63,639 bases of DNA, filler included, from Chrysochromulina tobinii (GCA_001275005.1; 8 parts of 8 records of this genome joined end to end with filler, not necessarily neighbours in it), one strand, 5' to 3'; numbered from the whole stretch's first letter, positions 23,001 to 57,245 are shown. Numbers and translations are program-made. The notes: a model not told the origin generated them from the letters alone.

Positions 23001-25288
23001 CGGTCCTCCGGCGCGAGATTGCGCAATACGACGAGGTCAAGGGGCAGATTGGCAGCGCGACGGAGGCGGCGACTGCTGAGCGCACGCGGCTCATGACGGA
23101 GCTCAACGTAGTGCTCGCCGCGCATGAGGCGGCGGCGGCGCGCCACGCGGCGGATGTGGAGGCGGTGCAGTCTGAGCATGAGGCCGCGCTGGACGATCTC
23201 GAGAAGGCGACCGAGGCGCGCCAGCTGCAACTTATTCATGAGTACGATGAGACGCTGGTAAGAGCACCCCCCCTAATTTTGTGCTCGGCCTGCATCCTCC
23301 TCCGAGCATGCATACGCTCACCACGGCGCCCTGTCCTCCCCACCCTCGACCTGAAACCCCCTCCGCCACCCCTGGCCCTGGTTGCAACCCTCCCCACCTT
23401 TTCGCATCCCCCCCCATGCCATCCCCCGTCCCTCGCAGGTGAGCGAGCGCCATCAGCGCGAGACGATGCGGGACGCGATGGCGACCGAGATCCAGAACGA
23501 AAAGTTCCAAAATTTCAACTTCCAGAAAAAGGTCTTGAAGTATGCGGAGGAGAAGCAGGCGATGGTCAAGACACTCAAGGCCAAGGAAACCGAAAGCGAG
23601 CAGCGAGTCGCCGAGGTGCGTGAGCTGCAAGCGACCATCGAGCGGATGCGCGGAGATGCGCTCGAGCGCGAGCGAAGATTGAGCGAGCTCGATAAGAAGC
23701 TGCTCGCGATGAACGGCTCGATGTCGCGGCTCGAGTCTAATAAGCAGCTGCTCGAGCTCAAGGTGAAGGAGCTCGAGCAAGTCCACGAGCCTACCCTCAT
23801 TGAGCTCAAGGAGGTCAAGTCGACCTGCAGCCGCCTCGAGGCCGAGCTAGTCAGGGAGGGCGACAGGCGCAAAGCCGCGGAGGCGCTCGTGCACGAAAGA
23901 GACAACCTGATCAGGTTCGTCAAACGAGATCTCGCAGCATCCGAGGCACAAGTCAAGGATGCGGAATTCGCCCATGTCATCACCATCAACAAGCTCTTCG
24001 GCCTCATCGACGAGCGCGCTGCCTGGACGACGGTTGCGGACTTTGCACGAGCGCGGGACCAACAGGTTCGTCAAGACCAGAGCCGCAACGGCAGGCCACG
24101 TGTCGACAAGTCCGAAGCACAGCTCGACGAGGATGACAAGGTGCGCCAGGAGCTGCTGCGCCAGCGCGACAAGATGCACAAGCAGGTCGAAGATCTCGAG
24201 GCCGAGCTCAAGCGTGCCCGGGCCCAGGGTCGTGCCTCGACCATGCGCCTCTCTGATGAGGCGCTGCGCGCGCATGACCATCTCAACGAGGCGCGGCGGC
24301 AGGTGAGTGACAAGGACCGCGGACCTCCCCACACCTCCTCCCACACCTCCCCACACCGCCCCACACCTCCTCTCACACCTCCCCACACCTCTTCACACCC
24401 CAGCTCACGAGCCTCGCATGACACCCTCATCCGCCCCTGATCGCCGCCCTGCGCCCTTGCCTGAATTGGCAGGTGCCTGAGCTCCAGATGACATCTGATG
24501 ACCCCTGATGACATCTGATGACCCCTGATGACATCTGATGACATCTGATGACCCCTGATGGCCCCTGATGACCCCTGATGACCCCTGATGACATCTGATG
24601 ACTCCTTGATGACATCTGATGACCCCTGATGACATCTGATGACCCCTGATGACAGGTGCATGAGCTGCAGGAGAAGCTCGCGATCGCCTCGAAGCAGCTC
24701 GCGCTGCACGAAGAGAAGGCCAAGGGCTCTGGCGGGCACTCGCGCCATGGCGGGCGGCGCGTGGCGCGAGGAAGCGCGGGCCTCGCCCCTTCGGCGCTCA
24801 GTTCGGCGCTCGCCGCGGCGGAGCATGCGGCACTACAGCAGCAGGCCGAGGCGGTAGCGGCGGCCGTGGCGGCGGCGAGCGAGGACGAGGCGGCGATGAA
24901 CGAGGTTTCCACCGCTGCCGCGCGAGGTCTCTCGATGAGCAATACGTTGCCGGGCTTCCATCGCACCTTCCATCGCACCGGATCGCCTGACGCAGCCGAC
25001 GACCGGCCGCAGACCGCTCCGCCACCGATTGCACCGTTGGCCAGCGTGCCGGCGCCGGCGACCTTGAGGCCGCCGCTCGCCGCACCGGCGCTCAAGCTGC
25101 CGCCGCCGCCAGTGGCAATGCCGCGCGAGGCCCCTCTCGAGCTCACGGCTCTCATGGAGCGCCACGTGATCGAGAATCAGAAGCTGCGCGAGCAACTGCT
25201 CTTCTTCACGAGCAAGGCGTCCAATCCCGTCCAGAAGAAGCTGAGTCGCTCTGCCTCCAGCTTGGGCATGCCACTGCCGCCCGTCTGA
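20010..25288 (+). CDS. CFAP57: CFAP57/WDR65-like flagellar protein (N-terminal WD40 propellers, long C-terminal coiled coil)
   Basis: AYSHGGHLLAASSGNHVLVF…LSGHLAPITALAWAADDAAFSTGGADGMVYTW and LESNKQLLELKVKELEQVHEP resemble CFAP57. Four ORF blocks join in phase 0 through introns 21777-21925, 23258-23438 and 24303-24655. Confidence 0.8.
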
Positions 25289-28161: not shown

Positions 28162-30903
28162 GGCGGCGACGGCGTCGGCAGCGGCGACGGCGGCGGCGGC
28201 GGCGGCGGCAGCGACGGCGGCGGCAGCGACGGCGGTGGTCGCGAGCGTCCCTAATTTGGCAATGGCGAGCGTCCACGACGGCGAGGTCGCGGCTGAGGCG
28301 ATCTGCGACGGCGAGGTCGCGGCAGATGCGATCTGCGCGAACCGTCGGCGCTGTGCCACGTCACCACCGAGCGCCCACGAGCGCATCGCATAGTCCGTCA
28401 GCGGCATGCCAAACCAGGCCAGCATGCGCCCCGCGCCGAACCCATGCTCAATCTCGTTCAAGTGGAGCGTCGCGAGAGTATTCTCCGCACCTGGTCATTA
28501 GAGGTCATTAGAGGTCATTAGAGGTCATTAGAGGTCATTAGAGGTCATTAGAGGTCATTAGAGTATTCTCCGCACCGGGTTTGGGCCAGCGGATGAAAAA
28601 GTCCGCACGGAACGCAGAGGAGCCCAGCGCCGTCGCGAGCACGCGCAGCGTCGCGCGCACCTGATGAGGGAGGCAATCAAGAGCGGCCGTCAAGAGCCAT
28701 CGGGAGCGCCGTCACGAGCGCGCGCAGCGTCGCACGCACCACCTCAACGACGGTCCGCCCCAGCAATCAATTCGCAATCAATTCGCAATCCATTCGCAAT
28801 CCATTCGCAATCCATTCGCAATCCATTCGCAATCAAGTCGCACGCACCACCTCTACGACAGTCCGCCCCAGCGCATCGCCCGCGACGACGCTCTCGAGCA
28901 CCATGGACGTGTGGCGCGCGCGCGCCGGTGGGCTGTGAACGTCGTGATTTGCATGTGTGAACGTCGTGATTTGCAGGAGGGCGGTGTGAGGTGTGAGGTC
29001 GGGCACAGCACTCAATGTCGGTGTGAAGGCGGTGTGAAGGCGGGTGTGAGGTCGGGCACAGCGAATCCATGGCACTCAATGACACTCAAAAAGCATACAT
29101 AGGGCATTCAATGGCACTCAACGGCAAGCACCTGTGCACGTGCGCGTTACATGAGGGCGGTGTGAAGTCGGACACGGCCACCAGAGCCTCATGTCCCTCG
29201 AGCAACAGCAGCCGCTCCATGCAGTTGGTGCGTGCCGCGAGCACCTACACGCGCGCGCCGTCATCAGAGGTCATCAAAAGTCATCAGAGGCCATCAGAGG
29301 TCATCAGAGATCATCATAAGTCATCAGAAGTCATCAGAGGTCATCAGAGATCATCAGAAGTCATCAGAGATCATCAGAAGTCATCAGAGATCATCAGAAG
29401 TCATCAGAGGTCATCAGAAGTCATCAGAAGTCATCAGAGGTCATCAGAGATCATCAGAAGTCATCAGAGGGGAGCACCTGCACGCGCCCGCCGTTGATGC
29501 AGAGCACTGCGAGTTCCTGATCATATGGCACCTGACCCTCAATGATGAGCGTGCGGGAGCCGCCCGCGGCAGCGCGACCCGACTTGAAGATGGACTCGGC
29601 CTGCGTGAGGATGAGCTCCTCGAACCAACGGGCGCGGCTCACCTGCCAAGCTCAGATGGGCCTGCATCATTAGGATGACCTGCATCATTAGGATGAGCTC
29701 TGCGAACCAACGGGCGCGGCGCACCTCACGCACTGACGCATCACCCGCGCTGAGAGCCTTCACGGGCGCATAGGCCCACAAGGAGCCATTCGAGAGGTTG
29801 GGAGGGTTGGCAAGACGAGGCCTGGGCTCGCCGCTCGGCATTGGTACGAACCGAAGCGGCTCGATCTGGTCGAGGCTCAGGCAGAGCAGAGGTCATTAGA
29901 GGCAATTAGAAGCCATCAGTGGTCATCAGTGGTCATCAGTGGTCATCACACCTGGTCGAGGCTCAGGCAGAGCAGGCCGCCGCTGTTGGTACCCATCGTG
30001 GGCTTGAGGACAAGGCGCTTGTGGTGGCGCAGGAGCACCTAAATGTCCGCAGAGGCCATCAGGGGCACTTCAAAGGCCGCAGAGGCCATCAGGGGCACTT
30101 AAAAGGCCGCAGAGGCCATCAGGGGCGCTTCAAAGTCCGCAGAGGCCATCAGCGGCGCAGCGAGGGGATAATGGCAAGGCGCCGTGGCGAGCGACTCGTA
30201 ACCGCCGCCGCCGCCGCCGCCGCTGAGCATCGTGCTGCTGGCGCCCATGCCGAGGGTGTCGCTAGCCGTTGTGGGTACAGATGCGATCGGGCTGGTACGC
30301 TTCTTCGACTTAACGGGGAGGCGATAGTCATCAGAGGTCATCAGGAGGGGAACACACCTCCAGTCGCAGCTCACAGCACGGGTCTGAGGGCGCGAGGAGC
30401 GTGCGGGAGGTCGTCAGAACGGGCACGTACTGCCCGTCGTCGTCCACCGCAAAGTCGGCCTCCGCGCCCACGTCGACGCCACCCATCGGGTCGTCGACGA
30501 AGGAGCACGTGTGCAGAGTCGGTACGATGAGCGCGATCGGCACTCCCAGCCCCACCCAGTGCTCCTTGCGCAGCGCCTTGTCGTCCGACCAAGCCCCCGC
30601 ATCGCACCGGAAGGACGCTCGCTTCTGGGCCGCGTGAAAGCATCCAATCAGCTGGGACAGAGAGCTCGCGTAATTGGCTCCTTCCGCGCTGCTCGGCCCC
30701 TTCCACGACGCATCAGCCAGCCCAAACAGCAGGCTATGGCGGTTGGCGCAAAGGTCTTCCTCGAATTGGTCCGCGACCGTTTTCGGCGACGCAGCGCCGT
30801 CAATGAATATGTCTTGGTACATGTTCGAGTGTTGCCCAGCGGGCGCGCGCGCACACCTGCACTTCGCCCACCGTCTCGTGTGGGACCTTCCCGATCGGGA
30901 CAT
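28162..30903 (-). CDS. Intron-rich ATP-grasp-fold protein, 3'-truncated; not seen as a single ORF
   Basis: Splicing introns 29866-29951, 29643-29724, 29245-29477, 28933-29131, 28661-28847 and 28491-28575 gives RLVLKPTMGTNSGGL…LIIEGQVPYDQELAVLCINGG…FRADFFIRW…LHLNEIE, the ATP-grasp motif order (KPxxG; ExxxxxE; RxD; NE). Structure between 30039 and 30357 is unresolved. Confidence 0.7.
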
Positions 30904-31061
30904 GTTGCAGATTTCCAGATTTATCAAGTTCGAGTTCCGATGAAGTTAGCGCGCTCTGTCGAGGCTTTACGGTTAACAACTTTCGGCCCATCAGTCAGTT
31001 GGTGAAGCTCTGTAGTCTCGCATCCCGAAACAAACTATGCGCGTTGTTATGAGCGTTGACG

Positions 31062-32476
31062 ATGCATCCCGCCGTGGACGTCCGGCTCGGGCAGCTGCGC
31101 TGGGCCGCGTTGCATGTGCATCCCGCATTCGACGCCGATCATCCGAATTGGGACGAAGCCAACTGCTCGGGACTGTTGCTCACGCACGTGGCCGTGCCGA
31201 CGGCCATCCAGCCCATCTGGCACGGCTCCACCACGGGTTCGCTCCGGCGGTTGCTCCAACCGTGCCGCCGCGCGTGCTCCCTCGGCCAGGTCGGCTGCAC
31301 CACTCGGCAAGGGAGCGTGATCGGACGTTGCAATGCGACACACGGCGTCGAGTACGCCCACCGTCTCCCGCGGCCGGGCGAGCCGGCCGTTGTGAGCTTC
31401 AACATGCCATCGTCGAAGCACGTTGAGGCCGTGCTTGCAGCGATCGCGGACGCGCGACCGCGGTTGTACTTTGAGTTTGAGGCGGCAGGGCACGCGCGCG
31501 TGCCACGAGATACCATCCTCAAGGGCGTCGATGGCATGATGTCGTTTCAGCGCGATGCGCTCGTGCCGTACCCGTACTTGAGCGCCTCGCAGCTTTGGGA
31601 AACCTCGCTGCGCCGTCCAGAGCGTGGGTTTCATGAGCGCCGACCCGCCGTGGCCGCATTCGTGTCCAACTGTGGCTCCCGGTATCGCAACGAGGTGGTC
31701 GAATTCTTACGAAACGCGTCGATCGAGGTCCACTCATACGGCGCGTGCTACCGGCCACGCCGCGCGCAGCAGGACGGAGGTGCCAACAGCTCCACGTTTG
31801 ACGCTCGCGAGTTCCGCAAGTCTCAGGGCTTTGAGTCTGGGGTGAAGCCCGAATGCTTGCACTATCGCGCGATCCTTGCGGTGGAGAACTCGGCGTGCAC
31901 GGACTACGTGACCGAGAAGCTCATACAGGTGGTCGGGTGCGGGGCGGTGCCGATCGTACGCACAGTTAATGGGCTGCCGGATTACAACGGCCTGTACGGC
32001 AGGTTCCCCATGCTGGATGGAGCACGTCTTGATGCAGCCTTTGCATCCTCCGTGCGCCAAGTGCTGACGGACCAGCGCACCTTTGAGAGCTACATGCCGT
32101 GGCACACTCGGACGTGGGTGCCCAGCCACGAGGTCATCGTCCAAAAGGACATGCGGAACCCGCACTGCACGCTACTTGATCTTATCACCAAGAGTCGCGA
32201 GACGTCGGGGGCTCTGTCGCCCTCGCACCTCGCGTCGGACGCACCAGGTGTGTCCTCTGATGACCCCTTGAGGCCCTCATCATCACCCTTTGTTGACCCC
32301 TTGATTACCCTTTATGACCGCAACGCCTCGCGTCCGTTTCACCAGGTGGCGGCGGAAGGTGTGAGACGGGCTCCAAGATGCACACACCACGGCCCCAGCA
32401 AAGGTTTGCACGCTCGTTTGCGGGTGGCTCCTACGCGACAGCGGAAGAGGTTGCGCGGAATGGCTCGCTCGGGTGA
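31062..32476 (+). CDS. Alpha-1,3/4-fucosyltransferase (glycosyltransferase family 10)
   Basis: AAFVSNC, VHSYGAC and YRAILAVENSACTDYVTEKL…GAVPIV. A probable intron at 32248-32345 moves the stop to 32476; the unspliced ORF ends at 32570. Confidence 0.85.
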
Positions 32477-32957
32477 AAGGGAGAAAAAGGGACGCGGATT
32501 AATCAATAAAATCATTAATCAACATACGAGCGGAAGGAGCGGTACACAAGTACCTCTAAGGTACCTCTAAACAAGCGGCTCTCGAGTTCTTTACGCGTAG
32601 CCAGCCTAAAAAGGGGGAGAGTGGTCGGAGAAGAGGAGATGTATCGCCCAGCCCGCTCCCAAGAAACGGACTCCGAACGGCCAAACTTGCGAAGGCGCCA
32701 ATGGCCAAATGCGAAGGCCGAAGCTTGCCGCGCGTTCACGCTCCCCAACAACGTGAAACGCCGCTCGATCGTCATCGTGAAGAGCGCCCATGGGCCGCCC
32801 ATGCTGAAAATGTCAACTCATGACCTCTAATGACCTCTAATGACCTCTAATGACCTCATAAATGACCTCTAATGACCACTAATGACCTCTACTGACGCCC
32901 ATGGGCCTTCATGGGCCGCCCATGCTGAAAGGGTGGGCGCCTCTGGTGCGTTATCCG

Positions 32958-33818
32958 TCACCGTCGGGGGTGGCTGCCCGAAGCCTTTCCATGCGGCGGC
33001 GGTCCGACGCCCGCTACGACGCCCGGGGCGGCCTGTTGGTCACCTGCGGCGGCGGCCTGTTTACCGGAGGATTTACCGGAGGATTTACCGGAGGATTTAC
33101 CTGAGGATAGGTCAGCATCAGCATCCGCCGCACCGCTGAGCATCCGCTTACGCAGCGCCATGAGCGCCAAGGCGACGACCACATCGGCAAATTCGACGGA
33201 CTCGCGGTGCGACTGCGTCGACTCCGCCGCCTCGGCCGACGCAGCTTGCAGCAAGGGATCCACCAAGTCACGCAAGTGGCGGCGCTCGACCGGCAGCGCG
33301 AAGGGTGGTGCGCCCAGCACGGCGCCCGTCGCCCTGACGACGAGGCGCGCGCGCCAGAGTTCCATCAAGAGGAATTGGACGGCAGCGCCCAGCGCGCGCG
33401 CGCACTTGCCTTGCTCGCGCGTCCAAAACGCTTGGAAGAAACCCTCGACGGTGTGGCATCGTTTGGATGACGAGACGCCCACGGGCTGGAGGTATGCCTG
33501 CAGCGCCGGTCGCAGCAAGAGGTGGCGGCGCTCGAATGTTTGCACCATCCACGAGGACGCCTCCTTCCAAGGCTGCTCGGCTGATGGCGGCGGTGGTGAG
33601 TCGGATAGGCGATGCTTCCGCTGGCTCGGCCGGTGCCGTGGCCCACTGCTGCTGTGGACGATGGGCTCCGAAACAAAGAATTCGCGAGCAGGCAGAGGCG
33701 GCGGAGGTGGCGGCAGCGGTGGCGGTAACTCGTGGCCGCCCTCGAGTGGTGGGAGGTCTAAGTCGTCGACCCTCGCGTCGGCATGGAGGTCGACGAGCGC
33801 TTTGCGTTTCATAACCAT
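32958..33818 (-). CDS. Hypothetical protein
   Basis: 286-aa ORF with a globular-looking core (WMVQTFERRHLLLRPALQAYL…FFQAFW…). Probable 57-nt in-frame intron at 33044-33100. Confidence 0.55.
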   Translation of the reverse strand: MVMKRKALVDLHADARVDDLDLPPLEGGHELPPPLPPPPPPLPAREFFVSEPIVHSSSGPRHRPSQRKHRLSDSPPPPSAEQPWKEASSWMVQTFERRHLLLRPALQAYLQPVGVSSSKRCHTVEGFFQAFWTREQGKCARALGAAVQFLLMELWRARLVVRATGAVLGAPPFALPVERRHLRDLVDPLLQAASAEAAESTQSHRESVEFADVVVALALMALRKRMLSGAADADADLSSGKSSGKSSGKSSGKQAAAAGDQQAAPGVVAGVGPPPHGKASGSHPRR

Positions 33819-34071
33819 GCTGAATTCCTATCCGCGCATTCCGCAGAAAACGCTTCCTCGCGCGCTGTTGGTGACACACACGACGTTGGACAGTCGACAT
33901 TTATCTGTCGTCTAGATGCACATGAATTCGGAGCACATGTGTGGGGCTTCAGAGCTTCGCAAACCTTACTTGAGTCCTTGACACAATCACGGACGGGGAA
34001 CACCACGATCGGGTCAGCGAGCGGCTCGGCCAGCACATCACAATCACCGCCGACGCGGAGAGAAGTGCACA

Positions 34072-37000
34072 ATGTCACTGGCGCTCGCGTTCGTGCTCGT
34101 CGCCCTCGGCCAGTCGTGCACCGACCGCTCGAACGAGTGTGGCACATGGGCGGCCCTTGGCAAGTGCTCCAAGGATCGGAGCCACATGTCCAAGGAGTGT
34201 CCCTACTCGTGCAAAACGTCGTGCGGTGGCAAGGGCGCGGCGCTGGTGGCTGCGATTGCGCTCGAGCCGGTGCCGAAGGCCGACCAGTATAGACAGCTGG
34301 GCGACATTTACGCGATCGAAGGCAAGATGGTGGCGTCCGAGCAGGCGCTGCGCCTGGCCACCGAGATCGCACCCACCGACAGCGAGATCCAACGGCTTCT
34401 CGGCACGGTCGTGAAGCGATTGGGCGACGCCGAGGGAGCGCTCGCTTTGTTCCGCAAGGCTGTGCAGCTCAACCATTCGAACGCATGGGCGCACGTCAAC
34501 ATCGGCAACGCGCTCACTCCGGGCGATGAGTGCTTCGCAGCGTACCGCGAGGCCATCCGTGTCGACCCGACCATGACGAACGCGTACATCAGCCTGGGCG
34601 ATAAGCTCCTCATGGGAGGCCGCGCGGAGGAGGGCTTCGCGACCCTACGCTCCCTCGCGGCCTTCTCGGCGCAGCATGATCCCGGCCGTCTCTACGAGAA
34701 GCTCGCCGAACACCAAAGGGTCGTCGAGGCTGCCTACGCCCAGACCCTCGCTGACGCCAGGCGCGGCCCCCAGACCTCTGCAGTGGCTCGCAATTGGATC
34801 GAGTACACGCGAGAGGCGCTAGGCGACGACAAGTGCCGCAACCCGCGCACTCGGATGGAGTGTGAAGAGAAGTGCCTGACGCCCGCATGCATTGAAGGAC
34901 TCGAAGAGGCGCTTCAACATGTCACCACCCATGTGCGCGTGGACGAAGCGCCGCATGGCGAGGAGTACATGTATGTACCGCCGCTCTGACGACCTCTGAC
35001 GACCTCTGCCGACGATCTGATGAGCTCTGATGAGCTCTGATGAGCTCTGATGAGCTCTGATGAGCTCTGATGACCTCTGCCAAGCTCTGATGAGCTCTGA
35101 CGGAGCGTACGTGTATGCACCGCCGCCACTGATGAGCTCTGATTGCGACGGATGAGCCCTTGATTGCGTCCTTCATCAGGTATCGCGTCATCGGCCAGTC
35201 CGAGAGCCAACCTTCCCTGATTGCGACTGATGACCCTTGATTGCCGCCTTCATCAGGTATCGCATCATCGGCCAGTCCGAGAGGCAACCTTCCCGTGCGC
35301 CGCTTGAGCCGGCGGTTCTCAAAGGAGCCGTTGATGAGGCGTGGGCGCCGTACCGGTGGAGCGCTTCGTCTCGGGCGCTCACCGAGGCAGCGGGCGAGGA
35401 CGAAGTCAAAGTGACGGTGACACAGCGCGGCAAGTTTGAGGTGTGAATAGATTAGATGAGCCCTTGATTGCCGCCCTCATCAGGTGTCGGAGAACGCAAC
35501 CACTCGAGCTCATCTCCATTCCCTGATTGCAACTGATGACCCTTGATTGCGTCCTCCATCAGGTGTCGGAGAACGCAATCACGCGAGCTCCGACGAGCTC
35601 CATTCGCGTCGCGGATCTGGTCGCGCTGCTTCACTCGAAGCGCACGCTCAATACGACGCTCTACACGCGCCAGGTTCGTCAATTGCATGCTGATCGGCCG
35701 CCCCTGCGATGGATGGCCTCTCGCCTTGCATGCTGATGGCCTCCCTGATTGCATGCTGATGGCCTCTCGCCTTGCATGCTGATGGCCTCCCTGATTGCAT
35801 GCTGATGGCCTCTCGCCGTGCATGCTGATGGCGCGCCCTGTGCTCAACACGACGCTTCGTCCAACCCTTATTTGCAGGCAACTCTCGACATGATGCCGCG
35901 CTTGCTTTCGACGGTGGCGTCCACGCCGTGGCTGGCGAACTTGCGACTGCAGGCGAGCCTGATTGCATCCCTCATTGCGAGCCTGAGTGCATCCCTCATT
36001 GCATGCTGATTGCGCTCCAGCATCGTCGGCTAGTTGCATGCTGATGGCCTCCCTCATTGCATGCTGACACATGGTTGCATGCTGGCACCGCAGACCATCA
36101 CCATGTGGCTGGGCGACGGCCATTTCCACAACACGCTCCACAACGACCCATGGGACAATTTCCTCTGCCAGCTCCAAGGCACGCAACGGATGACCTTAGA
36201 TGACCTCTGATGACCTCTGATGACCTCTGATGACCTCTGATGACCTCTGATGACCTCTGATGACCTCTGATGACCTCTGATGACCTCTGCCAGCTCAAAG
36301 GTACTCTGCTCGGGCCGCCCGCGTGCGAGTGCTCACCACGGCCCACTTACCCCACACAGGTACGAAACACGTACTGCTCTGGCCGCCCGATGCGCGCCCT
36401 CTCCTGTATTATGCCAAGCGCCAAAATACGTTCGCCGAGTACGCGCCCTCGACGGGGGAGAAGCGGCACCGTCGTGTCATCGAGACTGACAACACCGCCG
36501 GAGTCAACATCGCCAAGGTCGCCTTTGCACAGATGGCCTCTGATCGCCTCTGATGGCCTCTGATCGCCTCTGATCGCCTCTGATGGCCTCTGATGGCCTC
36601 TGATCGCCTCTGATCGCCTCTGATTGCCTCTGATGGCCTCTGATGGCCTCTGATCGCCTCTGATCGCCTCTGAGTCCCTCTGATCGCCTCTGATGACCTC
36701 TGATTGCCTCTGATCACCTCTGATGGCCGACTGAAGGCAGTTGCCGCTCTTTCGGCACGCCTTCACATGCCAGTGCTCATCACGGCGCCCTGTCCCGCAG
36801 GTCGACTTTGGACAGTTCCCGCTCTTTCGGGACGCTTTGAAGCAGATGCGGTACGCGAAGCTCGAGCGCGGCGACTGCTTCTTCCTCCCTCGCGGCTGGC
36901 ACCACGTCGTCTTCTCCGTGGTGGGGACGCCGGCGAATTTCAATTTGGCGATCAACTTCTGGTTCAATCGCGAAGCTACCCTCAAGGGCGCGAAAGAGGG

Positions 37001-37175
37001 CGCGGACGCAGCGCAGGCCAAGGTGGGAGCGGGCGGCGCCTTGAAGCGCATCCAGGCACGGGAGGGGTTCACATTCACACTGGATGAGCTTCACAGCGCC
37101 CTCGCCGAAGCGAGAGCGGAGGGGCAAGCGTGCGCCGCGGGGGAGGCTGGAGCGGTGGAGGCGGAGCGACCCTAA
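34072..37175 (+). CDS. Secreted ShKT + TPR + JmjC/cupin 2-oxoglutarate/Fe(II) dioxygenase
   Basis: Signal peptide MSLALAFVLVALG; ShKT CTDRSNECGTWAALGKC…MSKECPYSCKTSC; TPR helices. After removing introns 34971-35256, 35441-35562, 35674-35877, 35953-36093, 36179-36359 and 36518-36800 the C-terminus reads MWLG…TLHNDPWDNFLCQLQGTKHVLLWPP…LERGDCFFLPRGWHHVV…NLAINFWF (HxD…H triad). Confidence 0.85.
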
Positions 37176-37598
37176 CTTGGGAGGAGGCGAGCTTTGACTC
37201 TCGAGCCCTAATTAGGCGAGTGGGCTTCTCCGCGATGGCTGCGAGACGGATGCTCATTTGATAGGCCATGGAGTCAGACCTGGGTAGTAACCAAGGGGCT
37301 GCGGCTAGCCAGCTTGCCAGGGCGCTCTAGCCAAGGGACTAGCCACTTGGCGGCACTGAGGCCTGTCGCCTGAGTGACTTGGCGCATGGCCAATTGCGCA
37401 TGGCGGCACACTGAGGCGTGAGGGATTCTTCTGTCTTGTCTTTTTATGGACTTGTAGTCAATGGGTTTTGGATCGTGAAGAGAAAGGCGAGGGCAGGTTT
37501 ACCCGCGCCTTCCTTCGTCTACTCTACGGTGGTTCTTCACAGATGTGACTTCACACCAGAGATGACATGAGTCTCGTCTGTTCCAGTTATTGGCTGAG

Positions 37599-38790
37599 AT
37601 GTCGCCGCCCAGCCTGAAGGCTGAGGCCTTCCCCCCGCCCGTGCTCGACGCCATGCGCAAGCTCGACACGAAGAGCAACGAGCCCAGCCTCATTCGCCAG
37701 CTATACGTGCTGGCGCTGCTCAACCGCGACGAAGCGATGCGGCGGATGCACTTCGGGCTACCACCCGACGTGGTGCTCGCGCAGCAGCCACCCTCGCTGC
37801 TCGCGCTCGCGCGCCCGCCGGCACCCTCCAGCTTCCAGTCGGCCGGCTTTCACCTTAAGCCGTCCACGTCCACGGGAGTGCGCCCTCGGCGCAGCCGCGT
37901 CTTCGGCGCGATGAGCGGCGCGGCCGAGAAGGGCGCCGACGCCGTCCAGGCCATCAGCGCGGCCCGCGAGCGCGCGATCCCGCACTTTCCGCCCGGGTAC
38001 GGCGTGCCGCCCATCGGCCACGAGCGTGTGTCGACCCGCGCGCAAACCGCCGACCCGTTCTCGTCGTCAGCGCCCACACGCGCGCCCACGTTCACAGCGC
38101 CCACATCGGCATCAGCGTCCGGGCTCCACTCCACTCCACTCCACTCCACGTCTCCGAGCGCCCTTCTCGCTCGACCGCCGCTGCGCCCCGCCGACCTCGA
38201 GAATGCGTACCCCGTGCGCCTGAGCCTCTATGAGCCGCCGTCGCCCGAGCACCGATTGGGAGCCTCATCAGGCAGAGGGAAGCCCAGGCTGCCCACCATG
38301 GCGCTACCGGTACGCGAGCTGCTCGCCACGCCTCCGATGCGAGCTCCGACGCTCCCAGCATGCAAGTGCTCATCACGGCGCCCTGCTCTCCCCACAGGTA
38401 CGCGAGCTGCTCGCCACGCCTCCGATGCGAGCTCCGACGCCCGGCAAGACGCCTCTCGTCGGGTACGCGAGCTACGCCTCCCTCGCGTCTCTCGAGGCCG
38501 CCGCGAGTGAGAGCGCCGCCGTGGGCGCCGGCCGGCCGATGGCCTCGCTCAGCCAGGAGCAGCGCCAGCAGTTGAGCGGCAGCGGCGGCGGCGCCGGTCG
38601 CGCGGGCTTCTCCTTTGGCGGCGCGTCGACGGCTCCTAATATGGGTGGCGCGCAGAAGCCGAGCTTCGACGCGTGGGCGGCGGCCGAGGAGGACCTCAAG
38701 TATCGAGCTGAGCAGGAGACGCGACGGGAGGAGATGCGCACTGTGAAGACCTCGATCGGCCGTGATGACGTGGGCACGATCGGCTTCTGA
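37599..38790 (+). CDS. Hypothetical low-complexity protein with one 88-nt intron
   Basis: ORFs 37590-38510 and 38230-38790 join via intron 38310-38397 (MALP|VRELLATPPMRAPTPGK). Confidence 0.65.
38310..38397 (+). other. Minimal, apparently young intron: 43-nt perfect copy of the downstream exon plus a 45-nt acceptor cassette
   Basis: GTACGCGAGCTGCTCGCCACGCCTCCGATGCGAGCTCCGACGC + TCCCAGCATGCAAGTGCTCATCACGGCGCCCTGCTCTCCCCACAG, followed by the identical 43-mer. Confidence 0.85.
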
Positions 38791-39157
38791 CGAAACTACC
38801 AGATCGCGTGATCTCAAAGCGTCTGAGGTGATGCCGTGGCATCCTTGGATGGCGGTGAATGTGATGTGTGTCACTGTCAACTGTCTTAAATCATATAACC
38901 GCAAACTCAATTGCTCAAACTCTGTCTGTGATTTCGGAACATACAGGTTACAGCACAACCGTCGCCCTTCTAAACCGCCCCCGTGCGGTACCCGCCATGG
39001 TGGTACAGTGTCTGTGTCTGTGTGAATGTGCGTCTGTGTGATTTCTTAACACAGCCGTCCCATCGGGAATGCCGCGAGTTTGGAGTTTGCAAGTTTGTGA
39101 CGCCGCGCAGCGCGAAGAAATCGCGACAGGGGCTCGACGCGACCGCGCTCGAGGCTT

Positions 39158-40250
39158 ATGAAGAACTTCTTTGGCGGCGCGAAAGGGCAAGAGGGCTACG
39201 CCACGTACAAAGAGCCGCCCAAGCCCAAAGCTGCAGCACCGGCACCGGCCGTGCCACCGCCACGTCCGTCCGCGCCAATCACCGCAGAAAAGGTAAAGTC
39301 GCCCTTCGCATACCCTCCAGCAGCCGGCGCCGCCGAACCGTCGGGGTTGGACTCTTGGACGCCGCCCGCGCCCGCGCCCGCGCCCGCGCCTGCGCCCGCG
39401 CCCGCAGCCGATCCGCAGATGGAGAAGGCCATCGCCGCGCAAGCGGAGATGCGAAAGCTTCGTCACATGAACGAAGCGGGGCCAGCGCATCGGCGGCTTG
39501 GGGAGGCGCATCCCGAGTTGCATCCGCAGCGGCTGCAGACAGAGCGTGAGATCCTTGCGGATCTGGAGGCCGAGATCCTCGATCGAGAGTGCCTGGAGAG
39601 CGAGGCTGCGAACGCCAAAGTGGAGTACGAGAACGAGCTGCGCGATCTTCTGGCCGAGGCCGCAGCCGCTTTTGAGGCGTTGCGTGCGCAGCTGCCACCT
39701 GGGGCGCTGCCCGATCCGGCGCCTACACCCGCCGTCACACCCGCCATGCCCGCCGCAGCGCCGGCCGCACCGCCTGACCTTCTCCGCGGCTTGGGCGCTC
39801 AGTACGACGCCCCGACCGCGACTCCGGTGCTCGGGACAGCGCCTCCGGCTGCGGCGGCTCCGCTCGGAGATATGTTCGGAGATATGTTCGGAGATTTGCT
39901 GGGCGGCGGCATGGGCGGCGGCATGGGTGGGGGCATGGGCGGCGGCATGCCCGGCGGCATGGGCGGCGGCATGGGCGGTGGCACTGGTGGCGGCATGGGA
40001 GGTGGCATGGGTGGTGGCGTGGGTGGGGGCTTCGGTGGAGGTTGGGGTGGTATGGCAGGCGCTGAGATGGGCGGCATGGGTGCTTCTATGGGCGGCATGG
40101 GTGGCGGCATGGGCGGCGGCACTTGTGCTATGCCGACGGCGCCCCTCCTTTCGGATCTCTTTGCAAGCGAAACGCAACCCTTCGCGACGCCCGCCACGGC
40201 GCCTTTGCCCACAACTGCGCCCGCTCGAGCGCCTCCATTGGCGGCGTCGA

Positions 40251-40284
<34 letters not shown>

Positions 40285-43200
40285 GGTGGACAGTGACGAT
40301 CCATTCGCAGGGCTCTTCTCCGGCATAGCGCCGCCGCCGGCTACGTCACCGTCGGTCCCGCGGCGAATCTCGTTAGACCGTCCCGCGAGTAGCAGCAGCG
40401 GCACTGGCGGGCTCGATCCAAATTTGGAAAGTCGGGCCGATCTCATCGCACCTACCAAATTTGGGTCAGAGATGGTCGTCAGTCGGTCGGAGGAGGCACA
40501 TACGATCACGTGTGTCGAGCAGATGGCGCCGGCGGCGCAGGTACCGACCTACCTTCCCAAGATCCCGTCCGTCCGTGCCGCGTCCCCCTTGCGACTGCAT
40601 GCATGTGCTCACCACGGCGCGTCCTCTTCCCCACAGGAGGCCATCCGAATGCTCCAAAAGGGGTGTCAGGCTCTCAAGTTTGGCAGGCAGGGCAAGCCTC
40701 ACTCGGTGCGGCGCTGCGTCCACTGAGTGCGACTGAGTGCGACTGAGTGCGACTGAGCGCGTCCGCGTGCGTTGCATGCTGATTGCCTCCCCCATTGCAT
40801 GCTGATTGCCTCCCTCATTGCATGCTGATTACCTCCCCCATTGCATGCTGATTACCTCCCTCATTGCATGCTGATTGCCTCACCCATTGCATGCAGGTGC
40901 TCTTCCGCCTGTCCGAGGACCTCCAGACGTTATCCTCATTGCATGCTGATTGCCTCCCCCATTGCATGCAGGTGCTCTTCCGCCTGTCCGAGGACCTCCA
41001 GACGTTATCCTGGGAGAAGAAGGGCCTGCAGGGTCTCGGCAAGGACATGGCGATGGGTTTCGGCAAGATGATGGGGGGTGGGTTCGCGAAGAGCGCCGAC
41101 ACGGCGCGCCGAGTCGACCTGAGTACTTTGGTGGAGGTGCTGCAGGTGCGTGCTAGCCTTGATGGCGTCTGATGGCGCACGATGGCGTCTGATGGCGTCT
41201 GATGGCGTCTGATGGCGTCTGATGGCGCCTGAGTGCGTCTCTCATCAACTGCTCGTCGTGCTTCAGGGCCCTGAGAGCAATGTCATTCGACGCAACCGCG
41301 GCGAGAAGCCGATTTCGTCCGCGGACGCGGGTGGCGGCACGGTGGAGGGCGACTACTCGTCATACAAGGAGGCCAAGGAGAACTTGTGCCTCTCGCTGCT
41401 CTTCGTGAGCAACGAGAAGGATGCAGACCGTGACTCGCTCGATATCCAGTGAGAGAGCGACGAGGGCTTTGCATGATGATTGCATGCTGATTGCATGCTG
41501 ATTGCATACTGATTGCATGCTGATTGCATCTTTGAGCACATGCTGATTGCACCCTTCATCAGGTGCGAGAGCGACGAAGCATTCATCAGCTGGGTCGTGG
41601 GGTTCCAAGCCCTCATGGCGCTGCATGAGGCGCTGAGCGGTGGGTTCGATGCGCTCTCGAGCGTGCTGCATGCTGATTGCATGCTGATTGCATGCTGATT
41701 GCATGCTGATTGCATGCTGATTGCATGCTGATTGCATGCATGCTGAGCGGTGGGTTCGATGCGCTCTCGAGCGTGCTCTCTGAGTGCATGCTGATTGCAT
41801 CTCTGAGGACGTGCTGATGGCCCCCTTCATCAGGTGGGGCTGAGGGGCTTGCGAGTGTCCGTGTCGAGCGCGAGGCCGCCCGTGCGCGGGCCCTCGCGCG
41901 GAGTGCGCCGCAGGTACGCAACTGATGACCTCTGATGACCTCTGATGACCTCTGATGACCTCTGAGGACCTCTGAGGACCTCTGAGGACCTCTGAGGACC
42001 TCTGAGGACCTCTGAGGACCTCTGAGGACCTCTGAGGACCTCTGATGACCTCTGATGGCCTCTGATGGCCTCTGATGGCCTCTGATGACCTCTGATGACC
42101 TCTGATGACCTCTGATGACCTCTGATGACCTCTGATGGCCTCTAATGACCTCTGATGACCTCTAATGACCTCTGATGACCTCTGATGGCCTCTAATGACC
42201 TCTGATGACCTCTGATGACCTCTGATGACCTCTGATGACCTCTGATGACCTCTGATGACGTACGCGGGCCTCGCTCGGAATGCGCCGCAGCTCTACCAAG
42301 CGATGCTGGAGCGCGAGGAGAAGCAGATGCAGCAGATGATGCGAGAGGCTGAAGAGGAAGCCAACCGGCAGTATGAGGCCTCGCGTGCGCGCGCAGAAGC
42401 GGCGGATCGTCAAGCTTTCGAAGCGAGGGTGAATGCCACTGATGACATCTGATTGCATCTGATTGCATCTGATTGCATCCCTCATCAGGTGCGTCGCGAG
42501 GCAGAGGACCTCTACTTTCCTCTTGATCGCCTTTGATGACCTCCTGATTGCCTCCCTCATCAGGTGCGTCGCGAGGCAGAGGACCAGGCGAACGCGCTGC
42601 TCGAGGCTGCTCGTAAGGAGGCTGAGCTTGCGCCGTTAGCAGGCGTCTTCGAAGGGCAGAGGTACTAAGTGCCACTGATGACGTCTGATTGCATCTGATT
42701 GCATCCCTCATCAGGTGCGTCTTCGAAGGGCAGAGGTACTAAGGAGGTTGATTGCCATCTGAGTGCATCGGATGGCCTCTGATGGCCTCTGATGGCCTCC
42801 CTCATCAGGTACCGGATGTCCGCTGATGTCCTCTGATGGATGTCCTCTGATGGCCTCTGATGACCTCTGATGACCTCTGATGACCTCCCTCATCGACTGA
42901 TGGCCTCTGATGGCATGCTGATTGCCTCCCTCATCAGGTACTATGGAGGCGGCTCAATGCCCCTCGGGCTGCCTGATCCCTTCTCTCCAGGCCTCTCGTC
43001 CGCAATGGCGGCGGCGGCGGCGGCGATGGCGGCGGGAGATCCGTCCGCCATGATGGCTCTCCGCGCGAGATTAGCCGAGGTTGAGGAGGAGAACCGACGG
43101 TTACGCGCCAATGGCGGCGGGCGGCGTGGGGGGGGCGGCGGCGTCGAAGAGGAAGAAGACGAGCAGGTTGTGCTCGATCGCAAGTGCTTCGAGGCGTATG

Positions 43201-44326
43201 AGGCCGCCCGCGTCGCGATGATGGCGACGCTCGAGGCTGGCAAGTTCCCCACAGCCGCCGAGTACGCAGAGCGTGATCTGATGAGCTCTGATGGCCTCTT
43301 AATCAAGTCTGATGATGAGTTCTGATGATGATCTCTGATGATCTCTGATGACCTCTAGTGACCTCTAGTGACCTCTGATGACCTCCCTCATCAGGTATGC
43401 GGCGCGTGATCTGCACCTGTACCGGCTCTCGGATGCGGACCTCCAAGCGGAATATGCGCGCTACACGGTAACTCCGCGGATGAGCTCTGATGACCTCTGA
43501 TGACCTCTGATGAGCTCTGATGACCTCTGACGACGTCCCTCATCAGGCGCTGTACCTCGCGGACGAGACGAAATCCATCGTGCGCGGGATGGCGGAGATG
43601 ACGGTCATCAAGCTTGGGGAGATGGTCGACAAGCCGCAGGCGAAGCGCATTCAGATGATGGCGCGGCAGGTAAGCGAGGGCCCTCTAATGGACCCCTGAT
43701 TGCACTCTGATGGACCCCTGATTGCCCTCTGATGGCGCGGCAGGTAAGCGATGGCCCTCTAATGGACCCCTGATTGCACTCTAATGGACCCCTGATTGCC
43801 CTCTGATGGCGCGGCAGGTAAGCGATTGCACTCTAATGGACCCCTGATTGCCCTCTGATGGCGCGGCAGGTAAGCGAGGGCCCGGGAGAGGACCCTTTGG
43901 TGACCCCTCTGATGGCCTCTCTGATGGCCCTCTGATGGACCTCTGATGGACCCCTGATTGCACTCTGATTGCACGCTGCTGAGTGCGACCGATTGCGCGA
44001 CTCATCAGGTGATGGAGGCGCGGCTTATGTCGCCCTGATGACGCTCTAATGACGCCCTGATGACACCCCGACGGCGCCCTGATGACGCCCTGATTGCCTC
44101 CCTCATCAGGTGGAGGAGGCGCGGCTTGCGAATGAGGCTCGCGAGAGGGAGCTCGCCGAAGGCGCGGCGGCGCGCGAGAAGCGTGCAGCGCTCGATGCGA
44201 TGAACCGCAGGGCATACGATGCATGCGTACCGGTATGGAAGGAGCTCAAGGCGCGCGCCGTGGCGGGCGTCGTGGCGGGTGCCGACGGCGGCGGCGGCGG
44301 GGGCGGGGGCGGCGGCGGCGGCGGGG
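39158..44326 (+). CDS. Large coiled-coil / GGGM-repeat / PH-domain protein, 3'-truncated, ~11 introns
   Basis: Spliced PH domain of PLC/PRAF type: MLQKGCQALKFGRQGKPHS|VLFRLSEDLQTLSW…RRVDLSTLVEVLQ|GPES…LSLLF…SLDIQ|CESDEAFISWVVGFQAL. Introns: 40541-40636, 40706-40971, 41146-41266, 41449-41562, 41640-41833, 41914-42290, 42429-42563, 42662-42937, 43262-43394, 43468-43546, 43670-44109. Confidence 0.78.
41922..42258 (+). repeat. Intronic 10-nt tandem array (CTGATGACCT / CTGAGGACCT / CTGATGGCCT / CTAATGACCT), about 33 copies
   Basis: Directly visible. Related arrays occur at 24485-24652, 28494-28560(-), 29260-29470(-), 35017-35100, 36190-36288, 36535-36725, 43275-43385 and elsewhere. Confidence 0.95.
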
Positions 44327-44426
44327 NNNNNNNNNNNNNNNNNNNNNNNNNNNNNNNNNNNNNNNNNNNNTTAATTAATTAANNNNNNNNNNNNNNNNNN
44401 NNNNNNNNNNNNNNNNNNNNNNNNNN

Positions 44427-47400
44427 GAACTGCTGAGCCCAAGAGGCGATGGCTGCGGAGCCCGAAAAGCGAAGGCTGCTGAGCCCGAGAGGCCATAGCT
44501 GCTGAGCCCGAGACGCCGAGAGGCGATAGCTGCTGAGCCCGAGAGGCGATAGCTGCTGAGCTCGAGGGGCGAGAGCTGCTGAGCCCGAGAGGCGATGGCT
44601 GCGGAGCCCGAGGGGCGAAGGCTGCTGAGCCCGAGAGGCGATGGCTGCGGAGCCCGAGGGGCGAAGGCTGCTGAGCCCGAGAGGCGATAGCTGAGCCCGA
44701 GACGCCGAGAGGCGATAGCTGCTGAGCCCGAGAGGAGATAGCTGCTGAGCCTGAGAGGCGATAGCTGCTGAGCCCGAGAGGCGATGGCTGTGGAGCCCGA
44801 GGGGTGATGGCTGCGGGGCCCGAGTGGCGATAGCTGCGGAGCCCGAGAGGCGATAGCTGCTGAGCCCGAGAGGCGATAGCTGCGGAGCCCGAGAGGCGAT
44901 AGCTGCAACGCCCGTGCTAGCTGCTGAGCCCGAGGGGCGATAGCACCTGCTGAGCCTATGCTGAGCCCGAGATGCAATAGCTGCTGAGCCCGAAAGGCGA
45001 CAGCTGTGCTGAGTCCAAGAGGCGATAGCTGTTTAGCCCGAGAGGCGATAGTTGCTGAGCCCGAGAGGCGATAGCTGCTGAGCTCAAGGGGCGAGAGCTG
45101 CTGAGCCCGAGAGGCGATGGCTGCGGAGCCCGAAAGGCGAAGCTGCAGAGCCCGAGAGGCGATAGCTGTAGAGCGTGAGTGGCGACAGCTGCGGAGCCCG
45201 AGAGGCGATAGATGCTGGGCCTGCGAGGCGCTAGCTGCGGAACCCGAGAGGCGACAGCCGCGGAGCCCGGAGGCGATAGCTGTTTAGCCCGAGAGGCGAT
45301 AGCTGCTGTGCTCGAAAAGCGATAGCTGCTGAGCCTGAGAGGCGATAGCTGCTGAGCCTGAGAGGCGATAGCTGCTGAGCCTGAGAGGCGATAGCTGCTG
45401 AGCCCGAGAGGCGATAGCTGCTGAGCCCGAGAGGCGATAGCTGCTGAGCCCGAGAGGCAATAGTTGCTGAGCCCAAGAGGCGCTAGCTGCTGGGTCTGAG
45501 AGGCGCTAGCTGCGGCGCCCGAGAGGTAACAGCTGATGAGCCCGGGAGGTGATAGCTGCTGAGCCCGAGTGGCGATAGCTGATGAGCTCGAGAGGCGATA
45601 GCTGCGGAGCCCGAGAGGCGATAGCTGAGCCCGAGAGGCGACAGCCGCTGAGCCCGAGAGGCGATAGCTGCGGGGCCCGAGAGGCGATAGCTGCTGAGCC
45701 CAGAGGCGTGAGCTGATGAGCCCGCGAGAGGCGTGAGCTGATGAGCCCGAGAGGCAATGAGCTGATGAGCCCGAGGGGCAATGAGCTGATGAGCCTGAGA
45801 GGCAATGAGCTGATGAGCCCGAGAGGCACTGAGCCTGAGAGGCAATGGCTGAGCCAGCAGAAGATAAGAGGTGAGAGCTGAGCCAGCAGAAGATAAAGTC
45901 CCGCTGAGCCGGCCGAAGATAATGTCCCAACCGAGGGGCAATGAGCTGATGAGCCCGAGAGGGCCCGAGAGGCAATGAGCTGATGAGCCCGAGAGGCAAT
46001 GAGCCTGAGAGGAAATAGCTGAGCCAGCAGAAGGTAAGAGGTGAGAGCTGAGCCAGCAGAAGATAAAGTCCCGCTGAGCCGGAAGAAGATAATGTCCCAA
46101 ATCCCTGTTTTGGGTAGGGTGGGTGGGTAATCAGTCAACTGCCGAACCCTGATGCGCTATGCGAGGCTGCTGGGTAGTCAAGGCTGTCGTCCCATTGGCC
46201 GTCAACGAAGAGGAGCCTAGACAGGCTCGGTCAAGGGCGGGCGGCATGGCTGAGCCCGAGAGGCAACAGCTATTGCTGAGCCCAAGAGGCTTAGCTGCGG
46301 AGCCCCGAGGAGCGCTAGCTGCGCAGCCCAAAAGGTACTAGTTGCAGAGGCTGAGAGGCAATAGCTGCGGAGCCCGAGGGGGCGATAGCTGCGGAGCCCG
46401 AGATGCGGTAGCTGCGGAGCCCAAGAGGCGGTAGCTGCGGAGCCCGAGAGGCGGTAGCTGCGGGGCCCAAGTGGTGCTAGCTGCGGAGCCCGAGAGACGC
46501 TAGCTGCGGAGCCCGAGAGGCCCGGTAACTGCGGTGCCCGAGAGGCGGTAGCCCGAGAGGCGCTAGCTGCGGAGCCCAAAAGGCCCGGTAACTGCGGAGC
46601 CCGAGAGGCGGTAGCTGCGGAGCCCGAGAGGCGATAGCTGCGGAGCCCGAGAGGCGATAGCTGCTGAGCCCGAGGGGTGGTTGCTGCTGAGCCCGAGGGC
46701 GGTAGCTGCGGAGCCTGAGGGGCGGTAGCTGCGGAGCCCGAGAAGCGATAGCTGCGGAGCCCGATTGCAAAGCCCGAGAGGTGAAGCTGCAGAGCCCGAG
46801 AGGCGACCGAGAGGCGATAGATGCCGGGTCTGCGAGGCGCTAGCTGCGGAACCCGAGAGGCGATAGCTGCGGAGCCCGGAGGCGATAGCTGTTCAGCCCG
46901 AGAGGTGATAGCTGCTGTGCTCGAAAAGCGATAGCTGCTGAGCCTGAGAGGCGATAGCTGCTGAGCCTGAGAGGCGATAGCTGCTGAGCCTGAGAGGCGA
47001 TAGCTGCTGAGCCCGAGAGGCAATAGTTGCTGAGCCCAAGAGGCGTTAGCTGCTGGGTCTGAGAGGCGCTAGCTGCGGCGCCCGAGAGGTAACAGCTGAT
47101 GAGCCCGAGAGGCGATAGCTGCTGAGCCTGAGTGGCGATAGCTGATGAGCTCGAGAGGCGATAGCTGTGGAGCCCGAGAGGCGATAGCTGAGCCCGAGAG
47201 GCGACAGCTGCTGAGCTCGAGAGGCGGTAGCTGTGGGGCTTGAGAGGCAGTAGCTGCGGAGCTCGAGAGGTGATAGATGCGGAGCCCGAGAGGCGGTCGC
47301 GAGTGGCGATAGCTGCGGAGCCCGAGAGGCAATAGATGCTGAGCCCGAGAGGCGGGGAGCCACAGAGGCGATAGCTGCGGAGCGCGAGGGGCGATAGCCG

Positions 47401-53400: not shown

Positions 53401-53934
53401 GCCCGAGAGGCGATAGCTGCAGAGCGCGAGTGGCGATAGCTGAGCCCGAGAGGCGATAGCAGCTGAGCCCGAGAGGCGATGGCTGCTGAGTCCGAGAGGC
53501 GACAGCTGCTGAGCCCGAAGGGTGATAGCTGCTGAGCCCGAGAGGCGATGGCTGCGGAGCCCGAGAGGCGATAGCTGCTGAGCCCGAGAGGCGATAGCTG
53601 TAGAGCGCGAGTGGCGACAGCTGCGGAGCCCGAGAGGCGATAGATGCTGGGCCTGCGAGGCGCTAGCTGCGGAACCCGAGAGGCGATAGCCGCGGAGCCC
53701 GGAGGCGATAGCTGTTTAGCCCGAGAGGCGATAGCTGCTGTGCTCAAAAAGCGATAGCTGCTGAGCCTGAGAGGCGATAGCTGCTGAGCCTGAGAGGCGA
53801 TGGCTGCGGAGCCTGAGAGGCGATAGCTGCTGAGCCCGAGAGGCGCTAGCTGCTGAGCCCGAGAGGCGATAGCTGCTGAGCTCGAGAGGCGAGAACTGCT
53901 GAGCCCAAGAGGCGATGGCTGCGGAGCCCGAAAA
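44427..53934. repeat. Complex minisatellite/satellite contig: ~23-nt unit GAGCCCGAGAGGCGATAGCTGCT and a 24/32-nt variant GAGCCCGTCGAGGCGATAGCTGCT(GAGCTGCT), with short unique islands
   Basis: Hundreds of degenerate units. Type A spans ~44427-47650 and ~52650-53934; type B spans ~49180-51170. All long ORFs here are translated repeats (QQLSPLGLSSYRLSGSAAIASR). Confidence 0.93.
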
Positions 53935-56531: not shown

Positions 56532-57245
56532 ATGTCCTCTGATGATGTTTACATGGCTAAGCTTGCCGAGCAGGCGGAGCGTTACGACGAGATGGTCGAG
56601 TACATGAAGAAGGTTGCCCAGGCGGCATCCGCCGACCTCTCGCTCGAGGAGCGCAACCTGCTCTCCGTCGCGTACAAGAACGTTGTCGGCGCCCGCCGTG
56701 CCTCGCTCCGCATTATTGGCTCCATCAAGAGCAAGGAGGTCGAGAAGGGCGGCGGCAAGACGGGGCTCGTGTCTTCGTACGAGGCCAAGGTGCTCGACGA
56801 GCTCAACAAGATCTGCAACGACATCCTCGAGCTGCTCAGCTCAACCCTCATCGAGAAGGCGGGCGGCAGTGCCGAGGCCTCGGTCTTCTACCTGAAGATG
56901 AAGGCCGACTACTACCGCTACCTTGCCGAATTCGCGCAGGGCGGGACGAGGTTGGAGCACGCTACCAACGCGGAGGAGGCATACAAGTCGGCCACCGACA
57001 AGGCCTCCGGCCTCGCTCCCACGCACCCGATCCGCCTCGGTCTCGCGCTCAACTTCTCCGTCTTCCTGTACGAGGTGCAGGGCAAGTCGCAGGAGGCGTG
57101 CGACCTCGCGAAGCAGGCTTTCGACGACGCGATCGCCGAGCTCGACACGCTCGACGAGGAGAGCTACAAGGACTCGACCCTCATCATGCAGCTCCTCCGC
57201 GACAACCTCACCCTCTGGACGTCGGACGAGCAGGATGGGCAGTAA
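56532..57245 (+). CDS. 14-3-3 protein
   Basis: [16 protein letters not shown]…[18 protein letters not shown]…[13 protein letters not shown]…[16 protein letters not shown]…[24 protein letters not shown] intronless. Confidence 0.98.

Follow-up and report, generated by a model that had tools for sequence, protein, structure and literature searches.

A reusable spliceosomal intron end in Chrysochromulina tobinii and the probable origin of its introns by exon duplication and copied filler

The window, by which we mean the whole stretch of Chrysochromulina tobinii DNA analysed here (63,639 nucleotides, spacers between joined records included), is eukaryotic and GC-rich, and at 56532–57245 it holds an intronless gene for a 14-3-3 protein that falls in a 90% identity cluster with a Chrysochromulina tobinii protein. 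The introns considered below lie elsewhere. A TPR/cupin-like gene, recognized by a Pfam match, occupies 34072–37175 on the plus strand with an ORF of 628 aa; an unnamed plus-strand gene of at least 979 aa runs from 39158 to the gap at 44327, with no Pfam match in any of three pieces submitted; and the intron at 28661 on the minus strand, written 28661(-), belongs to a gene that matches ATP-grasp weakly. These introns are filled with variable tandem repeats, here called filler, of which CTGATGA is one unit.

The preliminary description of this DNA had listed 16 acceptors ending in a shared 3′ cassette (cassette B). A cassette-like 20-mer does end at all 16 coordinates: 28661(-), 35179, 35256, 35483, 35562, 41562, 41833, 42488, 42563, 42714, 42808, 42937, 43394, 43546, 44008 and 44109. 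The ending is CCCTCATCAG at ten of them, CCTTCATCAG at four, GACTCATCAG at 44008 and CCTCCATCAG at 35562. TCATCAG forms the final 7 nt at 15 of the 16 sites (CCATCAG at 35562), and it is, as had been pointed out, the exact reverse complement of CTGATGA. Fifteen sites lie within four mismatches of the 20-nt consensus, compared with a mean of 0 such sites in 20 base-shuffled windows. The two bases directly 3′ of the cassette are GT everywhere except at 43546, where they are GC (15/16 and 1/16).

All 16 sites are thus real, but not all are acceptors of mature introns. Exon joints at 35562, 41833 and 42563 are found in RNA contigs of runs X1, X3 and X8, which come from three studies, and 35256 and 42937 are supported by pieces of X3 RNA contigs, the latter by length arithmetic; this evidence comprises the 15 joints listed, with 273 more beyond them, and consists of contigs rather than raw reads. 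RNA contigs skip over the copies at 35179, 35483, 42488, 42714 and 42808, the reading frame rules out 44008, and the use of any of these six as an acceptor gives rise to premature stops. When the last cassette of each cluster is taken as the acceptor, frames of 628 aa and 979 aa stay open. Therefore, ten sites are terminal acceptors, five of them supported by RNA and five (41562, 43394, 43546, 44109 and 28661(-)) assigned by open reading frames, and six are internal copies, every one of which is followed by GT. In run X15, which is probably DNA, none of the RNA joints occurs among the joints listed, and the sequence is uninterrupted across 35335–35741. With GT/GC...AG ends, joints in three RNA runs and none in X15, and open frames, these are U2 spliceosomal introns removed from RNA. 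Part of the intron at 34971–35256 is retained in one X1 contig.

In the TPR/cupin-like gene, that intron ends in a terminal cassette at 35237–35256, flanked by X3 pieces covering 34008–34970 and 35257–35438 and consistent with the 628-aa ORF. Its internal cassette, at 35160–35179, is passed over in the X3 contig and is followed from 35180 by a copy of the start of the next exon (19/20 identical). The next cassette-B intron, 35441–35562, carries the CCATCAG variant at 35543–35562, with its joint present in X1, X3 and X8 and absent from X15, and has an internal copy at 35464–35483 followed by an exon-start copy from 35484. The same gene also contains a GC-AG intron at 36179–36359, with eight CTGATGA units and an acceptor of a different type, the joint of which is found in X1, X3 and X8.

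The unnamed gene offers the type example at 41449–41562, in which, on sequence and reading frame, an exon-start copy (16/20) that supplies the GT is followed by 11-mer filler and the cassette, with no CTGATGA. Its 3′ end is common to the intron at 41640–41833 (joint in X1, X3 and X8), which also lacks CTGATGA and has a decayed exon-start copy (13/20) and an internal duplication of the donor. At 42429–42563 (joint in X1, X3 and X8), an internal cassette ending at 42488 precedes a perfect 22-nt exon-start copy and the terminal cassette. The intron at 42662–42937 has internal cassettes at 42714 and 42808, the former being, with its filler, a copy from the neighbouring intron; an X3 piece starts at 42936, and the remaining length fits a join of 42661 to 42938, as does the frame. 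An exon-start copy (16/20), CTGATGA filler and the cassette follow one another at 43262–43394, where an RNA piece ends at 43261, the frame agrees and folding predicts a perfect 7-bp hairpin. By reading frame, we further place an intron at 43468–43546, with GC after its acceptor, and one at 43670–44109, which has repeated donor duplications, the internal cassette at 44008 with an exon-start copy (16/20) and the terminal cassette at 44109. The minus-strand intron, 28661–28847 (sequence and frame; the donor could also be at 28850), lacks CTGATGA and holds an internal copy of the uninterrupted exon–exon junction. In an intron of contrasting type at 41914–42290 (sequence and reading frame), a 34-unit filler array ends in an acceptor that duplicates the end of the exon upstream, without a cassette. 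CTGATGA is thus missing from 3 of the 10 cassette-B introns of the window, and six introns that contain CTGATGA filler have acceptors of other types.

The cassette is a compact U2 3′ end with a predicted branch A at −17, a pyrimidine run and CAG. In every one of the ten window introns, the base at −17 is an A within a branch-like word; this A is retained in 101 of 103 variants and may serve as the branch point. The statement that the family has almost no polypyrimidine tract was overstated, since 8–10 of the 11 positions from −16 to −6 are pyrimidines in 10/10 window introns, followed by ATCAG. The last filler unit forms the 5′ half of the cassette, which changes along with the filler, and the 3′ half recurs in a same-strand 23-nt repeat, where CCTCCCTCAT is followed by CAG in 230 of 277 contexts and by TGC in 22. 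The last 7 nt are the most invariant part across the 103 variants. A CTG branch word lying opposite CAG, both of them consensus elements, accounts for three of the seven complementary bases. In the explanation that we favour below, the complementarity to CTGATGA is probably a by-product that results from CTGAT lying opposite CAG, possibly through one old fold-back, and not a working element. The near-invariant TCAT at −7 to −4 is only partly explained by the proposed model.

A different role for this complementarity had been suggested, namely that each acceptor originates as a fold-back copy of the filler at its own locus or has to pair with that filler in the pre-mRNA. The 15 exact complements among 16 sites are what this idea would lead one to expect, and so is a predicted pairing of about 1.0 in the introns ending at 43394 and 43546. 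The covariation proposed as a check was nevertheless absent: in 150 metagenome filler arrays not holding the searched pattern, with introns predicted from sequence, the share of arrays followed by TCATCAG is 18 of 70 when CTGATGA is present and 26 of 80 when it is absent (Fisher P=0.38), and over all 214 arrays the counts are 52/104 and 56/110. Acceptor and filler thus lack the covariation that marks a structured, paired acceptor element. No compensatory changes were found at the five core pairs (−20 to −16) in the 103 variants that had not been searched for; the 5′ arm changes and the acceptor arm stays. Folding gave a mixed outcome. Over whole introns, acceptor–filler pairing is strong in 2/10 and moderate (0.27–0.45) in 4/10, but there is hardly any in the other four, including the RNA-supported 35562 (0.03) and 41833, the second of which has no CTGATGA; the 40-nt local folds of the ten introns are unremarkable (z from −1.56 to +1.04). 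Pairing in these models can occur and is not required. Upstream of cassettes, 641 filler 8-mers are sense and 21 others antisense, an inverted filler dimer occurs at 1 of 212 sites, and a search for a palindromic fold-back intermediate found none. Fold-back copying at each locus, or obligatory pairing, is therefore very unlikely. A single ancestral fold-back at the origin of the cassette is a separate matter, compatible with the explanation favoured here; it might perhaps have occurred, although we consider it doubtful. The 18 matches obtained against Rfam all scored well under the gathering thresholds; they were to miRNA and C/D-box models that matched the filler, and they were rejected.

That a shared 3′ cassette defines an intron family was borne out well beyond the window. 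An exact search of metagenomes returned at least 140 stretches, from which 139 loci were loaded, 80 of them with long flanks; introns at these loci are ascertained on the exact cassette and predicted from sequence. Viral contigs gave 0 matches to the cassette. With a looser cassette match and redundant copies removed, 212 sites remain, so that the last 20 nt recur as many similar copies in unrelated genes. GT or GC directly follows at 183 of these 212 sites, with the consensus GTGCG. An upstream copy of the start of the next exon (within 300 nt, score ≥12) is present at 51 of 120 exact sites, compared with 0.5% in swapped controls. Under the looser match, it is found at 85 of 212 sites, comprising 60 primary cases, 24 directly behind another cassette and 1 other, and 127 cassettes have no copy detectable at that threshold. 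The 60 primary copies are 11–55 nt long (median 23; shorter duplications are missed, so that the lower bound of 11 nt reflects the threshold), 52 start with GT or GC, 21 are perfect, and their introns have a median length of 84 nt. Such an intron therefore consists of an exon-start copy, filler and the cassette, with one splice site coming from the duplicated target, as also at 41449 and 43262 in the window. The footprint is the same at acceptors of two further cassettes, A and C, with GT or GC after 37 of 40 cassette-A sites. An acceptor-blind intron finder was noisy, and the 100 of its 164 filtered rows that remained unclassified were left out of the counts.

Adjacent introns tend to resemble each other. 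Among adjacent introns with differing exon starts, 10 of 48 pairs have the stretch of filler upstream of the cassette in common, compared with 280 of 17,974 other pairs (1.6%), and resampling gave a mean of 0.35 and a maximum of 4 in 20,000 draws. Three of the ten alike pairs come from the window that suggested the test, and two have similar exon starts, maybe through internal gene duplication. A test over all distances was weaker (P between 0.005 and 0.03). The remaining 38 adjacent pairs are not alike, and most templates would therefore be distant or old.

The cassette's role as an acceptor, the duplication footprint, filler on the same strand as the cassette and nearly always sense, the likeness of neighbours and the choice of the distal copy in five cases are all observed, and they lead us to regard cassette B as a ready-made spliceosomal intron end that is reused in many genes. 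The introns probably arise when an exon stretch of 11–55 bases is duplicated and filler plus cassette is copied into the space between the duplicates. The upstream duplicate, which begins with GT or GC, would become the donor, as seen in RNA-supported and in-frame cases, and the cassette would supply the branch and the acceptor; the mRNA would therefore be unchanged. The copying would most likely happen during repair of a staggered break, when synthesis switches template to an intron already present on the same strand; in many cases, this intron would be a neighbour within the gene. The same process acting over an existing donor or acceptor would leave internal copies behind, with the last one used in the mature RNA, as the five skipped cases illustrate, and internal copies might be spliced recursively. 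Insertions without a GT/GC start or an acceptor would presumably be purged by selection, and those that splice cleanly would be kept. Several results speak against this explanation: changes that improve the donor are not enriched in the copies (P=0.28), microhomology at the junctions is weak, no empty allele was found (both detailed below), most cassettes have no detectable exon-start copy and most adjacent pairs are not alike.

The main rival to this explanation is target-primed reverse transcription. In this model, intron RNA, excised or still nascent, is copied into a staggered nick by a non-LTR reverse transcriptase that begins at the CAG, so that the 3′ end is constant, the 5′ end uneven and the duplication variable in length. 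These three marks of non-LTR insertion are all present: the left end is offset by −6 to +17 for 68 of 70 cases, the duplications vary from 11 to 55 nt and the last 7 nt are the most invariant; some introners have moreover been attributed to non-LTR elements (PMC12130899). However, a simple motif scan of ORFs in 348 kb of redundant loci and in the window detected no motif resembling a reverse transcriptase, there is no poly(A) tail, and the filler is nearly always sense, also in places where splicing makes no such demand. Microhomology at the junctions is also weak (mean 1.39 compared with 0.77, n=18; at least three bases in 3/18, P=0.14), and the rank-test value of P=0.006 is inflated by the resampled nulls. 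We consider such copying of intron RNA rather unlikely.

Another mechanism to consider is a non-autonomous DNA-transposon introner, with CTGATGA...TCATCAG as its terminal inverted repeat (TIR). As in the introner-like elements of Symbiodinium (bioRxiv 10.1101/2020.10.14.339549), the element would give the 3′ site, the duplication the 5′ site, and the inverted repeat would end at the acceptor. Yet the duplication length is not fixed, CTGATGA comes first in the filler in no more than 10 of 70 cases, start offsets vary and interiors are not alike end to end. Since the left end is not fixed, there is no TIR; this model is rejected, and a transposon of that type appears extremely unlikely.

Alternatively, the introns could be old ones remodelled by slippage and gene conversion, which would homogenize the acceptors, with duplications at the boundaries mimicking new insertions. 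The 24 of 85 most-upstream copies that lie directly behind another cassette are compatible with remodelling, as are the unrelated donors in front in several window introns (34971, 42429 and 43670). No empty (intron-less) allele was found in 42 cross-locus comparisons, which also suits remodelling; 41 of these were identical and therefore mostly represent the same strain. The 60 primary cases nevertheless start at the copy itself and, at a median of 84 nt, leave little room for an older intron, and internal copies of an uninterrupted junction are seen in the sequence at 28661(-) and 42716–42748. Remodelling is thus improbable, and duplication with copied filler and cassette is the explanation that we compare with known systems.

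In the introners of Symbiodinium and Polarella (bioRxiv 10.1101/2020.10.14.339549; PMC9860276), the 3′ site is carried by the element, the donor comes from the target site duplication (TSD), the mRNA is unchanged and the exon starts are donor-like, and the same is true here. In contrast, those introners have fixed TSDs of 3–9 bp, often a TIR, and similar bodies, whereas here the duplications measure 11–55 nt (median 23), the left end is uneven, the common sequence is limited to some 20 nt, the body is variable tandem filler, and only 1.6% of non-neighbour pairs share the stretch upstream of the cassette. By analogy, the cassette-B introns work like an introner but without a fixed TSD, a TIR or end-to-end identity. 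Introner family 5 of a marine Chrysochromulina sp. (TARA MAG), described in the legend to Fig. 2C of the introner survey (PMC9860276), bears the same genus label and likewise has a TSD without a TIR, but its TSD is 4 bp, and its polarity is opposite to that of cassette B, since the element brings the 5′ site and recruits the 3′ one. Neointrons of Daphnia pulex formed at staggered breaks (PMC4202315) resemble the present introns in having an exon-derived direct repeat at the opposite intron end and secondary internal duplications. Their repeats are shorter, at 4–12 bp, and their sources were mostly unidentified there, whereas the cassette-B insert belongs to a recurrent family, ends in a working acceptor and often matches the neighbouring intron. 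Tandem genomic duplication, in which a duplicated exon segment reportedly supplies splice sites (PMC3265369, PMC4974935), fits the intron at 41914–42290 and the internal copies. The cassette-B introns differ from that pattern in that the branch and the acceptor come from foreign inserted sequence and not from the duplicate, with the acceptor supplied by the cassette in 10/10 window introns.

A resemblance to recursive splicing should also be considered. Recursive splice sites consist of an internal AG immediately before GT, with later use of a distal acceptor. The internal cassettes share both features, AG-GT and distal use, but lie in short introns and have an origin in duplication. Introns of Emiliania reportedly contain tandem repeats of 10–11 bp. 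The genome paper of C. tobin, in its available portion, mentions introns once (PMC4580454). A literature search of main texts gave no account of the cassette or of its footprint in freshwater Chrysochromulina.

The stacked internal copies and the GC donors mean that gene prediction in these genomes will be misled. The importance of these introns does not lie in the proposed pairing or fold-back of the acceptor. How new spliceosomal introns come about other than in bursts of transposons has long been an open question, and natural examples are few. In this culturable genus, several families of acceptors have a common footprint, consisting of a long and variable duplication, same-strand filler, a fixed and working 3′ end and likeness to neighbouring introns, and the source and mechanism of intron gain are therefore testable. 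It is possible, though we put it forward tentatively, that this alga multiplies introns without a transposon. Existing intron ends would serve as templates, copies of which reach exons close by, whether through repair synthesis or by reverse transcription of intron RNA, and come to lie behind a long duplication of the site; introns would thus seed their neighbours, and stacked copies would become recursive sites with zero-length exons. If true, such transposon-free self-seeding would provide a living, genome-wide system in which the birth of introns can be watched and tested.

A second family of recurrent intron 3' ends, cassette A, occurs in the window beside cassette B (the reused end of about 20 nt terminating in TCATCAG). 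Its acceptors, with the core CTCACCACGGCG, lie at 36770-36800, 38365-38398 and 40605-40636 and, on the minus strand, at 2819-2950 and 59270-59325. Across the listed metagenome loci and the window, GT or GC directly follows cassette A in 37 of 40 instances, and 13 cassette A entries carry, as with cassette B, an upstream intronic copy of the first bases of the following exon. Separately, a near-identical duplication of ~700 bases (59215-59978 vs 60168-60932) adjoins an assembly gap and may be an assembly artefact; the Pro-rich, C-rich stretch at 62396-63639 resembles a retroelement fragment, as judged by eye.

Cassette C is a 23-nt repeat at 40772-40971, which ends in TGCATGCAG and has CCTCCCTCAT in common with cassette B. 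Its acceptor is duplicated 75 nt apart (40896 and 40971), and because this duplication keeps the frame open, it is possible that either copy is used. A 23-24-nt satellite with strong strand skew occupies about 9.5 kb (44430-53931).

Two GC-AG introns with RNA support interrupt the TPR/cupin-like gene (35953-36093 and 36179-36359); PMC4028052 describes GC donors as common in Emiliania.

Introns that contain filler (short tandem repeat units) and no cassette lie at 24473-24655 and 41914-42290 and, on the minus strand, at 28491-28575, 29245-29477 and 29866-29951; their acceptors derive from a duplicated exon end or an AG-terminated filler unit. Sub-threshold C/D snoRNA matches to filler at 35008-35092 and 41928-42247 arise because the repeat units carry UGAUGA, which resembles box C, as well as CUGA, which resembles box D; the likeness is probably incidental.

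Other recurrent intron ends, for instance those terminating in CAAATTAG or CTAATTAG, and a CTAATTG filler occur in metagenome loci including L025, L045 and L077, which suggests additional cassette families beyond A, B and C.
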